A DNA stretch of 64,000 nt, taken from IMG/VR virus record IMGVR_UViG_3300042196_000418. The stretch is one strand, 5' to 3'. The notes beneath the pieces are model-generated. The model had not been told where the DNA came from and ran no database searches. It saw nothing but the letters and a program-made list of their open reading frames with translations. Made by a program: the position numbers and the translations under genes. The first letter of the stretch is position 1. Each line of letters begins with the position of its first letter. This stretch comes from a virus (Duplodnaviria; Caudoviricetes). Positions 43,269 to 55,122 of the stretch are shown here, piece after piece.

Positions 43269-43697
43269 CTACTTCTTGCGCAGTGCTTCCGCGATCTCGG
43301 CATCGAGCTGCGCCGACGTCTTGCGGTCCGTGCGATGCCCGACGAGAACTGTCGCGGTACGTAAGCCGTGGCGATGTGCCGTAAGCATCCGATGCGTACC
43401 GTCGAGAACAGTGCCGTCATCGAAAGCCAAGATGGGACTTGCATGGAGAGCTTTTGCGAGTCCGCCGCGCGCCTTCGCCCACTGCTCGATGGTTTCGATT
43501 CGATCTAGATCGTCTTTATCGAGTGGTTGTCGCGCGTAGTCTTCAAGCGTTCCGACACCTGAAAAACGGAACCACCCTAAGGGACGCTTCTCTTCTGTCC
43601 AGGGCAGATCAAATTCATCACCTTCGAGAATGAACTCGGCGTCTGGCGATCTTGTGGTGACGTCGTTAACAACCTTCAGACCCTTCACGCCCGTCAC
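43269..43697 (-). CDS. ParB/Srx N-domain protein with C-terminal KTSAQLDAEIAEAL tag
   Basis: PILAFDDGTVLDGTHR. Confidence 0.7.
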   Translation of the reverse strand: MTGVKGLKVVNDVTTRSPDAEFILEGDEFDLPWTEEKRPLGWFRFSGVGTLEDYARQPLDKDDLDRIETIEQWAKARGGLAKALHASPILAFDDGTVLDGTHRMLTAHRHGLRTATVLVGHRTDRKTSAQLDAEIAEALRKK

Positions 43698-44216
43698 TCA
43701 CGCGCACTCAACGCGGTTGGTGCGGCACCATTCGTAGGCCGCGTCTTTCGCTGCGGTCATCGCAGCCTTCTTGCTTGAATAGCCGCCTTCGGCGACGAGC
43801 GACTCGGTGAAGCTGCCCGTGTCGCTGTCGACCGTGGCGAGCGCCCACCACGTGCCGCCCTTCTTCAGCGCTCCGTAGTACACGCCGTCGCCTTTGCTGC
43901 CCATGTACTCGGCGTCGTCCCAGTCGAGGTGCGGCGGCGCGCCGTACTTCGCCTGCGTCTTTGAATAGGCGCTTTCCGTCTCCGGGATCTGTTCGGTGAC
44001 AGTGAAGCTATGGGCGCCCTTTGATTTCTCGTTGAGCACGTGGACTGCCGCGCTGTCCTTGATGAGACCGCGTGGATCGGCGAGGAAGTATTCGCGCACG
44101 TAAGAAGGGATCTGCGAGCCCTTCTTCCATTTCCCTTCGCCGCGCTTTACCGCCAGCAGGCCAAAGCCTGAGATGGCTCGTTGAACCTTTGCCGTCCATG
44201 TCGATTCAGACTTCAT
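43698..44216 (-). CDS. hypothetical protein
   Basis: coupled ORF. Confidence 0.6.
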   Translation of the reverse strand: MKSESTWTAKVQRAISGFGLLAVKRGEGKWKKGSQIPSYVREYFLADPRGLIKDSAAVHVLNEKSKGAHSFTVTEQIPETESAYSKTQAKYGAPPHLDWDDAEYMGSKGDGVYYGALKKGGTWWALATVDSDTGSFTESLVAEGGYSSKKAAMTAAKDAAYEWCRTNRVECA

Positions 44217-44422
44217 TTGTACCGAACCTCGTCGATATGCTCAGCCGCCTTCTGGACGGCCTGCCACGCCTTGTCGAGGGCCTTATAGGTGGCCGGCGGA
44301 GCGGCGCCTTGTAGCGCGAATGCTTGGGTGAGTTCGCCCTGCACCTCGCCCAGCAGCTCGAAGATGAGCGTAAGCTTCCCGTACATCGCAGGGTTGTTTC
44401 GTTTCGCCTCCGTGCTCGCCAT
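44213..44422 (-). CDS. hypothetical protein
   Basis: ATGA overlap with the next gene. Confidence 0.5.
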   Translation of the reverse strand: MASTEAKRNNPAMYGKLTLIFELLGEVQGELTQAFALQGAAPPATYKALDKAWQAVQKAAEHIDEVRYK

Positions 44423-44431
44423 GCAGCGATG

Positions 44432-44467
44432 GTAACAAAACGACTGGACTTTCGTCCATTTTGTTAC
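44432..44467. repeat. GTAACAAAA...TTTTGTTAC dyad
   Basis: inverted repeat, same motif as 47375-47513. Confidence 0.75.
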
Positions 44468-44485
44468 CGTCGAGTCGCACGTCTG

Positions 44486-52361: not shown

Positions 52362-52861
52362 TGCGCAAGAAGATCAGCGAAGAGGACGCAGTGAAGATCG
52401 CCGAGCTGCGTGCTACCTATGAAGAGACCCGGCGCACCGCAGCAGTCGAACCTACTGCGGCAACACGGGCCGCCGCGAAGGAGGCATGGGCAGCGCTGGA
52501 CGCCGCGAGCCCCCGCACGGCGACGAAGACGAGCTTTGCAAGCCGCGCCGGCAAGAGACAGGACGCGCAAGGGATCCGCGCTTATCGACAGGGCCGATCG
52601 CACGCGACGAAGAAGACCCCAGCCCAGCTCAATCGCGAAATCGCCGCCGCGCTCGCGTCCGAGGACGAGGGCGTCTTCTACCTCACCGACACCAGGGAGC
52701 AGCCGCTGGAACTCGAGTTCTCATCCCGCCCCGCGGCAAAGCGCGCGGCAATGAAACTCGTACGCGAAGGCGTGCACCCCAGGGTTGAAATCTGGCACCG
52801 ATGGCACGGCGGTCGCTACATGCAGGGCCTCGCAGACGAGGACGGCTGGTCCGATGTCTAA
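52358..52861 (+). CDS. hypothetical protein with internal KKTPAQLNREIAAAL tag
   Basis: ATGA overlap; tag lies between two segments. Confidence 0.65.
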   Translation: MMRKKISEEDAVKIAELRATYEETRRTAAVEPTAATRAAAKEAWAALDAASPRTATKTSFASRAGKRQDAQGIRAYRQGRSHATKKTPAQLNREIAAALASEDEGVFYLTDTREQPLELEFSSRPAAKRAAMKLVREGVHPRVEIWHRWHGGRYMQGLADEDGWSDV

Positions 52862-53886
52862 GTTACGCTACGCAAAGTTCACGCTGACCGACGGCACGCG
52901 TTTCATCCTGCGCGTCACCAGCGAGTCGCCCACCATCGTCCGAGGCTACGAGGTCAATGCCGACGGCGACGAGGTCGTTCCGCCCGGCGCCTGCAACCGG
53001 TTGCGCATCGTCGGGCGCGACTTCATCAAGAAGACCGTCGAAATGCGCATGAACAACAAGTACGCGACGCTTGAGGTCGTACCGCACGAGGCGGGCGCCA
53101 TCGCGAAGCTTGTGAACATCGTCACCGACACCGCGACGCTCGCCGAAGCGCTGTACCCAGGCAGCGGCCTTCCGACAATGAACACCGGCGTCTACGAGGG
53201 CACACGGACTCCGATCAGAAAGCTCACCGGCCGTGAGGTCGTCACGGTAGCCGGCACGACCGCGGGCGCGAAGGTCCTGTCCGACGAGACCTGGATCATC
53301 GACCGCTTCGGACCGCTCGGCGCGAGGCAGATCAAGAAGCTGCGCGAGCTCACGAAGGAAGCATTATGAGCAGAAAACTGAACTACGGCGACTTCTCGCG
53401 GACCGGCTACCAGGACTGCGCCAACGTGTTCGACACGAACAACCACAACGACGCCTGGCACCGCCTCGGCAAGCCGCGTGGGACCGGCGTCGCCATCAAG
53501 GTCGTGCGTGAGGCGTGGGGAAACGACGAGGACCAGTACGAGCAATGGCTTTCTCAGGCCGACGTCGACGAGATTCTCAAAGACGGCCTCGAACTGCGGT
53601 CCGCATATCGGGCGTGGCGTGACGCCTGGCAGGGCTGCGCGGAGAGCGCCGTGAAAGCCGACCTGAAGGAGTGGATCGCGCAAGAAGACGAAGAAGACCG
53701 ATGAAGTCCAAGGCCGATCCGCACAAGCTCATGATCGAAGGCAAAGGGCCCTCGACAATGGGCCGCTGTGCGTGCGGCACCGTCTTTCTGTCGGGTCTCG
53801 GCCGCGGCACCGAACGGCAGCAAGTCCGCGACCAGCATACCAGGCACCTCACGAACGTTGCGTGGATGGAGTCGTTGCCAAAATGA
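52854..53886 (+). CDS. three coupled hypothetical genes (52854-53369, 53366-53704, 53701-53886)
   Basis: overlapping stops and starts. Confidence 0.6.
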
Positions 53887-54293
53887 CCAAGACCCCTGCC
53901 CAACTAGACGCTGAGATTGCCGAAGCGCTCGGCAAGGACCGATCGACGCATCCGAACGTCATCGAATACGCCGTGCAATACCTTTTCAAGAACAAGACAC
54001 CAAAGGCTGCCGCCGCGGCCACGGCGAAGAAGCTATCCGGCGGTCCGAATATGTTCTTGGACGTGCATCCACCCGACGTTGTGAAGATCGACGTGTCCCA
54101 GCTCGAAGGCGCTGTTTGGGATCGAATGGTTGACTACACGCTCAAGGGCGTCGCCAGCTTCAAGGCCGACAAAGCACACTGGGCCCTCGACGGCGCTCTT
54201 CAACGCTTCCACCAGCGCCCGAGCCTGCGCGCAGAGCTCAAGCGCCGCGTGATCGAACGGCTTGGCCGCGATCCATTCGAGGGCCTCGAATGA
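53883..54293 (+). CDS. hypothetical protein with N-terminal KTPAQLDAEIAEAL tag
   Basis: MTKTPAQLDAEIAEALGK. Confidence 0.7.
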   Translation: MTKTPAQLDAEIAEALGKDRSTHPNVIEYAVQYLFKNKTPKAAAAATAKKLSGGPNMFLDVHPPDVVKIDVSQLEGAVWDRMVDYTLKGVASFKADKAHWALDGALQRFHQRPSLRAELKRRVIERLGRDPFEGLE

Positions 54294-54733
54294 CAAAGTC
54301 CGCCCAACTGGATCGGGAGATCACCGAAGCGCTAAACGGCCCCGCATGGCTGGTCTCTCAAACGAAAAAGCGCGTCGATCCGAAGTCCTTCCGCGATCTC
54401 ATCCAGAAGGCCGTCAAGTTCCCCGAGTTCAAGGCACCCTCGAAATACACGTGGGACTTGATCCGTGGCGTCCCTATCCGCGAGCTGGATCCAGGATCGA
54501 AGTTCGACTATGAGACGGATCCCGAGAGTAACGACGAGGAAGCCGGCGAGAATCTCGCGCGCTACCACCGGGTTGAAGCGCTCCTCGTCCACCAGGGAAA
54601 GAAGCCTTGGCCCATTGTCGTGGGTCAAGACGGCGCGGTGATCGACGGCCACCATCGGCTAGCCGTGCTCTCCGATCATGGAGCCGAAACGGTAGACGTC
54701 CTGTGGGTCCGGCCAAAGGGCAAGTACCGGTGA
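54290..54733 (+). CDS. ParB/Srx N-domain protein with N-terminal tag
   Basis: MTKSAQLDREITEAL; PIVVGQDGAVIDGHHRL. Confidence 0.75.
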   Translation: MTKSAQLDREITEALNGPAWLVSQTKKRVDPKSFRDLIQKAVKFPEFKAPSKYTWDLIRGVPIRELDPGSKFDYETDPESNDEEAGENLARYHRVEALLVHQGKKPWPIVVGQDGAVIDGHHRLAVLSDHGAETVDVLWVRPKGKYR

Positions 54734-55122
54734 CCAAGACCGCCGCCCAACTCGACGCCGAAATCGCCGAGGCCCTGCACGCCAAGGCCGTCCAATCATC
54801 AGAGGCCGCCAAGCGCCTGTCCGACGGCGTCTATGACGCCGCCGAGCACCGCGCCGCGGCCAAGGCACATCGACGCACAGCTCGACTTCACAAAGCTGAT
54901 CCGACCGGGGGCGACGCTGCGTGGCTGCACGAGCTGGCCGCGATCAATCACCGACAAGCAGCCACGGCACGTGCCTCTCGAGCACTCACGGCGGCGAACC
55001 CGGCACGGACGCAGAAGACCTTCGCCGCGTTCAAGGAGAAGCTCTCCGCCGCCAACGAGCACACGTCGATGGCCCAGGAGTACGCACGACAGGCGCTCGC
55101 CGCGGCAAAAAAGCGCCCATGA
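54730..55122 (+). CDS. Ala/His-rich helical protein with N-terminal tag
   Basis: VTKTAAQLDAEIAEALHAK. Confidence 0.7.
   Translation: MTKTAAQLDAEIAEALHAKAVQSSEAAKRLSDGVYDAAEHRAAAKAHRRTARLHKADPTGGDAAWLHELAAINHRQAATARASRALTAANPARTQKTFAAFKEKLSAANEHTSMAQEYARQALAAAKKRP

Follow-up and report, generated by a model that had tools for sequence, protein, structure and literature searches.

Portable targeting peptides and the peptide described here

The cargo proteins of bacterial microcompartments (BMC) and encapsulins are docked on the shell by encapsulation or cargo-loading peptides, amphipathic helices of about 15-20 residues that are located at a terminus or between domains and are joined through a poorly conserved linker. 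Amphipathic helices of the A-kinase anchoring proteins (AKAP) dock on the dimerization/docking domain of PKA RII. In phage T4, the capsid targeting sequence (CTS) is a portable targeting peptide of 10 residues that the prohead protease cuts off, and both ends of Alt undergo processing (PMC9026906). Packaging and injection have been proposed for the phage-type polyvalent proteins, in which ParB, ADP-ribosyltransferase (ART) and peptidase domains are hub domains (Iyer, Burroughs, Anand, de Souza and Aravind 2017; PMC5512222). Here we analyzed a peptide of about 15 residues, hereafter called the tag, which recurs on six proteins encoded in a 64-kb stretch of DNA (the window; IMG/VR record IMGVR_UViG_3300042196_000418) from an uncultured huge phage-like element. 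Sequence comparisons indicate that the tag is a mobile module that has been gained, lost and moved among unrelated small proteins of one lineage.

The tag resembles the BMC and encapsulin peptides in being an amphipathic helix in two predicted models, in having a flexible linker and in its variable position. However, what is conserved in those peptides is a hydrophobic pattern, whereas the tag is conserved residue by residue. None of the BMC-H/T/P or HK97-fold encapsulin Pfam families was found among the 73 open reading frames (ORFs) of the window or 84 neighboring genes in relatives. With the AKAP helices the tag shares a single short helix placed at varied positions of unrelated proteins, which in the AKAP case is read by a single helical-bundle receptor, but the AKAP helices are eukaryotic and unrelated to the tag in sequence.

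Similar to the CTS of T4 IPI-III and Alt (PMC9026906), the tag is a short portable peptide on unrelated proteins that include an ADP-ribosyltransferase. The CTS is sufficient to direct proteins to one place and has an adjoining processing site; for the tag, the candidate for such a site is the tripeptide H-A-T, which is present in a minority of relatives. Whereas the CTS is strictly N-terminal, about 54% of the tags were N-terminal, 33% internal and 13% C-terminal among the metagenome matches listed. The CTS is also shorter and is always removed by gp21. The tagged proteins contain the same kinds of effector domains as the polyvalent proteins (DdrB-type ParB, ART and peptidases), and shuffling multi-module tagged proteins were found, in some relatives only. 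However, polyvalent proteins join 2-15 domains in one giant polypeptide, whereas the tagged proteins of the window have a single body and a length of 130-169 residues. Here the bodies are mostly separate small proteins that share the tag, as if a label had replaced the physical link.

Six copies of the tag in the window

The ORFs of the window were listed and all six reading frames were searched for the motif. The six peptides reported in the first-pass annotation were all located in the ORFs and at the places it had named (Table 1), with four copies N-terminal, one internal and one C-terminal. A hidden Markov model (HMM) built from the six 19-mers scored 34-39 bits on the six copies, and the next match in the six frames reached 4 bits. 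Because of this gap in the scores, we conclude that the window holds exactly six copies. The full motif did not appear in any of 100 third-order Markov simulations of the window. An independent JGI contig of 171.8 kb has the same genes, and its gene calls agree with the bounds of the tagged genes. The starts of three of the genes with an N-terminal tag overlap the preceding stop codon by 4 nt (ATGA or GTGA). The median isoelectric point was 9.7 for the tagged proteins and 9.0 for the untagged ORFs, but since the untagged set includes spurious Arg-rich ORFs, nothing was concluded from this difference.

Table 1. Genes of the window that encode tagged proteins, and the transposon that carries one of them (aa, amino acids)
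Feature	Position	Strand	Tag	HMM score (bits)	Remarks
ParB-like protein, 142 aa	43269..43697	-	C-terminal, 43281-43322(-)	37.7	Transposon cargo
169-aa protein, candidate papain-like body	51852..52361	+	N-terminal, 51864-51905(+)	36.6	D-V-A-K variant of the tag
167-aa protein	52358..52861	+	Internal, 52613-52654(+), residues 86-99	34.1	
136-aa protein	53883..54293	+	N-terminal, 53889-53930(+)	38.6	
ParB-like protein, 147 aa	54290..54733	+	N-terminal, 54296-54334(+)	36.7	
130-aa protein	54730..55122	+	N-terminal, 54736-54777(+)	35.7	GTG start overlapping the upstream stop
5.8-kb transposon	42602-48411				23-nt terminal inverted repeats 42602-42624 and 48389-48411, 96% complementary; SWIM-DDE transposase

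Conservation and predicted structure of the peptide

A repeat of this kind could be a DNA-level feature, such as a recombination or regulatory site, that is translated by chance, and the first-pass annotation had named conservation of the DNA rather than of the codons as an outcome that would speak against its reading. The copies do lie at gene starts and junctions, where modules exchange. However, they are found in every reading frame of the plus strand as well as on the minus strand. Codon identity across the six copies was 0.83 at positions 1 and 2 and 0.39 at position 3, and 84 of the 149 codon pairs for identical residues differed in the codon. Therefore, the peptide and not the DNA is the conserved object, with selection acting at the peptide level. 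The codon-position comparison refuted the DNA-level explanation, to which we assign practically no probability.

The fuller consensus of the tag is K-K-[T/S]-[P/A]-A-Q-L-D-[R/A]-E-I-A-E-A-L, and that of 70 non-identical tags from metagenomes is x-x-K-K-T-x-A-Q-L-D-R-E-I-A-E-A-L. Among these 70 tags, Q and L never vary, whereas K, A, D, E, I, A, A and L each occur in at least 90%. The tag is retained in 19 orthologs of the 136-residue protein, with 9 of the 14 tag columns invariant.

In the AlphaFold2 (AF2) model of the 136-residue protein (mean predicted local distance difference test score, pLDDT, of 92.5), the tag was predicted as a helix of residues 5-16 with a pLDDT of 75-83, and the body exceeded 90. 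In the model of the 169-residue protein the tag helix spans residues 7-19 at a pLDDT of about 40, suggesting that this tag is probably mobile. The T/S-P-A-Q segment at the start reads as a putative helix N-cap. A helical wheel places L, I, L and three Ala residues on one face, which the near-invariant Q, D and E flank, and leaves only two positions variable. Since about 260 degrees of the helix surface is thus conserved, the tag helix would be buried in a groove of one highly conserved partner. In the 12 residues past the tag, R, K, S, P and G are over-represented while hydrophobic and acidic residues are under-represented, a composition that suggests a flexible basic tether.

Two other uses of such a helix were weighed against this pattern. 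The tags may bind one another, with the Ala-rich helices packed in small bundles that would give mixed assemblies of tagged proteins. The second half, E-I-A-x-A-L, equals the heptad of de novo designed alpha-helical barrel peptides (CC-Hept and CC-Type2), and these synthetic peptides were the sole matches of the tag profile among PDB sequences. Some proteins are also double-tagged, and the tagged genes are clustered and translationally coupled. However, coiled-coil and alpha-helical barrel peptides have three or more heptads in a regular hydrophobic register and the designed barrels need four, whereas the tag helix of 11-12 residues has one E-I-A-x-A-L heptad and only about 1.5 heptads in all. 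Coiled coils tolerate drift, though Q, D and E of the tag are near-invariant, which fits a specific receptor better. The pLDDT of the tag is below 50 in one model and 75-83 in the other, and the models carry no contact information on packing. We regard tag-to-tag binding as improbable.

Alternatively, the tag may be a substrate motif, i.e., a degron or a site of covalent modification at Lys, Thr or Gln, through which one enzyme would control many accessory proteins, for example by removing early proteins later in the cycle. The near-invariant K-K and T/S ahead of the helix are consistent with this, as are the H-A-T motifs that adjoin tags and the papain-family and other peptidases that are encoded near tagged genes in relatives. 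However, the conservation lies mainly on the hydrophobic and Ala face of the helix, bacterial degrons are mostly terminal and seldom so long or so conserved, and no modifying enzyme is linked to the tag. A substrate motif is hence a doubtful explanation, and we consider the conserved helix face to fit a docking helix.

Gain, loss and movement of the tag

The homologous ParB-like bodies of the 142- and 147-residue proteins bear the tag at opposite ends. The untagged window gene 16261..16884(+) has homologs with one N-terminal tag in the relatives L104 and L119, with two tags in tandem in L052 and with none in L063. Another untagged gene, 52854..53369(+), lies inside the cluster of tagged genes and encodes an N-domain in common with relatives, which ends in 'ATLEVVP' and is followed by a C-domain of 94 residues. 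In the L086 and L198 homologs the tag directly follows 'ATLEVVP', the L075 homolog stops within about 8 residues of it, and the more divergent L065 homolog also stops there. The 94-residue C-domain was considered as a pointer to the reader of the tag, but no second copy of it was found among the metagenome loci examined. P0021, a homolog of the 167-residue protein, shares the C-domain of that protein and is double-tagged, with one tag ahead of the C-domain and the other N-terminal. The codon comparison, the two ParB-like proteins, these cases of gain and loss, and the AF2 helices all bear out the earlier description of the peptide as a portable, position-independent helix.

Tandem double tags, 5-50 residues apart, were observed in L052:691-1377(+), P0023, P0026 and P0022.

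Distribution of the tag

A degenerate DNA pattern for A-Q-L-[D/N]-x-E-I-A-x-A-L was scanned over JGI and other metagenome contigs. At least 120 stretches from soil, rhizosphere and sediment matched the pattern, including contigs of 128 to 721 kb. The HMM of the tag gave 167 matches among the metagenome stretches listed, and after removal of chance matches those listed comprised 125 unique tagged proteins in 78 body clusters. When a 32-column profile was compared with 1.84 billion cluster representatives, at least 555 clusters matched with an E value of 0.001 or better, some of them double-tagged. The tags are clustered in the genomes. Ten were found in one contig of 5.9 kb. A 184-kb relative has about 19 in 20 kb (L198, ENA ERZ25039558 contig_109134, 20.4 kb), so that nearly half of the genes there are tagged, although the gene calls of L198 are unreliable due to assembly frameshifts (DnaJ is split in two and the ortholog of the 169-residue protein is broken).

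No true tag was found in 185,579 prokaryote species genomes (one genome each), where all 62 pattern matches were due to chance; they were TctC/Bug-type binding proteins and others with 22.7 bits or less and without K-K-[T/S]. The motif search outlined in the first-pass annotation was productive in the window, with six copies, and unproductive in IMG/VR, where 13 matches were chance-like and none was a true tag. A search of IMG/VR with the alignment of orthologs found no relative of the 136-residue protein, and plasmid and phage records gave no DNA match to the region. A word-index search with the first 40 residues of the 136-residue protein recovered its orthologs only and no other tagged proteins. 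Judging from these searches, the tag is confined to one lineage of huge uncultured elements, and its sequence can be used as a sharp marker to recognize this lineage, which the standard viral catalogs miss, in metagenomes.

One tagged protein, P0099 (HSX23305.1), is encoded on a 117.8-kb contig filed under a Gaiellaceae metagenome-assembled genome at NCBI, which is either a binning artifact or a hint at the host.

Proteins that carry the tag

Two of the six bodies had been described as ParB-like and one as papain-like, with the other three left without a domain. The two ParB-like assignments were supported: the 147-residue protein matched a PHROG ParB-like family with an E value of 3.6e-4 and, weakly, Pfam ParBc_2, and its core is homologous to that of the 142-residue protein in the region of the DGxHR motif (45% identity over 31 residues, BLASTP E value of 9e-7). 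The papain-like assignment of the 169-residue protein is plausible but weak. Comparison of orthologs, which retain the tag, together with the model showed a conserved Cys44 at the start of a helix and a conserved His81 in a strand. The folds listed by VIA-align were mostly papain-like Cys-His folds (SseI, protein-glutaminase, arylamine N-acetyltransferase, OspI, LapG, vasohibin and NlpC/P60), all with Z scores of 4.1 or less, and Foldseek gave no match for this body. As first described, the remaining three bodies matched no family in Pfam or PHROGs, and Foldseek found no match in the PDB for the 136-residue body. In the 167-residue protein the tag lies between a low-complexity N-region and a conserved C-domain. 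Tagged homologs of the 130-residue protein were found in L015, L085 and L087.

No Pfam or PHROGs family covers the tag in the six proteins, and the peptide strings were not found in a text search of about 8.4 million papers and preprints. Among 269 tagged proteins scanned, nearly all bodies were without a known family. The families matched were DUF6496 (eight proteins) and ParB_N (two), with single matches to PARP plus ART-PolyVal, GNAT, sigma-70 region 4, SPOR and EF-P-like KOW. Ten cluster look-ups of tagged proteins returned 'hypothetical protein' throughout.

DUF6496 is the most frequent Pfam family on tagged proteins. In P0033, two C-terminal tags come after a sigma-70 region 4 domain. 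Provided that the tag serves as a docking label, P0033 would carry a promoter-recognition module to the common partner.

An H-A-T motif near the tags of relatives

The tripeptide H-A-T occurred 60 times in the tag-bearing loci, compared to 13 expected, and the other five orderings of the same residues occurred 6-12 times each. In 150 representatives H-A-T was found 108 times and the other orderings 1-6 times. GC-matched bacterial control loci showed no enrichment, with 13 occurrences and 19 expected. The over-representation in proteins of the tag-bearing relatives is 5- to 30-fold. The motif is part of the consensus R-[A/H/S]-H-A-T-K-K, for which 13 different combinations of codons are used. 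Many internal tags have the motif directly in front of them, and some tags are followed by it at a distance of 4-16 residues; it also occurs where shuffled modules join in multi-module proteins. In the window, the only H-A-T beside a tag or at a junction is at 52601-52609, where H-A-T-K-K immediately precedes the internal tag of the 167-residue protein. From its placement, H-A-T may be a junction or processing signal.

The motif was found at tags or junctions in the relatives L032, L035, L057, L070, L093, L099, P0058, P0099 and P0115. The proteins L032:940-1980(-) and L035:4106-4747(+) and those of L070, L093 and L099 are multi-module proteins in which H-A-T marks each junction. In varied order, they combine the tag with DUF6496, present once or twice, and with several unnamed modules.

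Proposed function of the tag

The conservation pattern and the analogy with known systems suggest, with moderate confidence, that the tag is a docking helix read by one common partner. The first-pass annotation had read the peptide as an address tag, for example for packaging into the capsid or for docking on a common partner; of that reading, the portable helix is supported and the address function is a proposal. In the proposed mechanism, a basic K-K would precede a helix-capping T/S-P and a three-turn amphipathic helix, A-Q-L-D-x-E-I-A-E-A-L, connected by the flexible basic linker to the protein that carries it. The helix would dock in a groove of the common conserved partner and thereby gather many different proteins at one place. 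If one receptor reads the helix, it would organize about a tenth of the proteome in widespread unclassified elements of soil and sediment. The identity of the receptor would reveal the destination of the tagged proteins, be it the particle, a compartment or a host machine, and would give a handle on hundreds of protein families now beyond annotation. A position-independent tag of 15 residues with a defined reader would also be a ready tool for targeting foreign proteins.

As to the destination, we tentatively propose that effector-like tagged proteins are loaded into the particle through the tag and would travel with the DNA, with the H-A-T beside the tag in relatives as a candidate release site. 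Loading into the particle is favored because of the effector-like bodies (ParB-like nucleases, ADP-ribosyltransferase, GNAT and, as a candidate, the papain-like fold), the precedent of T4, and H-A-T as a possible release site. An extended form of this proposal, which we consider unlikely, is that the tag and H-A-T make up a modular 'load and release' system, in which the tag would dock dozens of unrelated effectors on a shell or scaffold of these unclassified 170-720 kb elements and a protease would cut at H-A-T to set them free. If true, such a label would take the place of the giant fused polyvalent proteins of ordinary phages.

Several observations weigh against loading into the particle. 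One third of the tags are internal, unlike the T4 CTS, and sigma-70 region 4, SPOR and EF-P-like KOW are odd cargo for a capsid. The tagged genes of the window lie in a co-directional accessory train behind an enhancer-type promoter box, not beside recognizable head genes, and one of the six copies (the 142-residue protein) is cargo of a transposon. H-A-T is not enriched in the window (3 occurrences, 2.7 expected), and only a minority of tags have an adjoining H-A-T.

The position of the tagged genes in accessory trains headed by enhancer-type boxes is also consistent with docking inside the infected cell. In that case the tag would dock proteins on a hub, either a conserved machine of the host or an element-made compartment or scaffold, where accessory proteins would be concentrated. 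Bodies such as sigma-70 region 4, GNAT and ParB-like domains would work in the cytoplasm, and the tag is near-invariant across elements from soil, rhizosphere and sediment, as expected of a very conserved receptor. However, no true tag occurs in the species genomes searched, and it is therefore not a copy of the docking peptide of a host protein. It is also not evident what need about a tenth of the proteins would have for one and the same target in the host. We rate an intracellular hub as possible but somewhat unlikely.

Genomic context of the tagged genes

The tagged genes on the plus strand belong to a train of small genes, which often overlap; an enhancer-type box at 48433 lies on one side of it and a full-length DnaJ gene at 56644-57762 on the other. 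The order of cpYpsA, tagged genes, DnaJ and a CxxCxxCC gene is conserved in three relatives of 180-342 kb. DnaJ was selected for complex prediction only because of its position beside the tag cluster, which is conserved in four relatives. The prediction for DnaJ residues 112-372 with the tagged 136-residue protein gave a score of 0.00, which speaks neither for nor against binding.

The palindromic box GGGTA-N6-TACCC has 12 sites in the window with at most one mismatch, compared to 0.27 expected (e.g., 9246, 9299, 23069, 38968 and 48433). The boxes are often paired about 55-65 nt apart and are located upstream of gene trains. Two of them lie directly outside the ends of the transposon (42574 and 48433), which, besides the gene of the tagged 142-residue protein, carries an RHH gene and one encoding a Fis-type helix-turn-helix.

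In relatives, the genes next to tagged ones are of the accessory kind that is typical of large phages. They include RNA ligase and RNA-repair domains, a sigma factor, integrases, an endolysin-type peptidoglycan-binding protein, a tail-spike-like pectate lyase and a papain-family protease. Probable membrane proteins of one family, with a basic N-terminus followed by 'TDV[VL]TQLECA', are encoded at 23050-23895 of the window and in L056, L064, L068 and L105; their genes adjoin tagged genes in these four contigs and not in the window. Collagen-like genes with G-x-y repeats, often in tandem pairs, were found within a few kb of tags in L020, L057, L076, L084, L086, L198 and L199.

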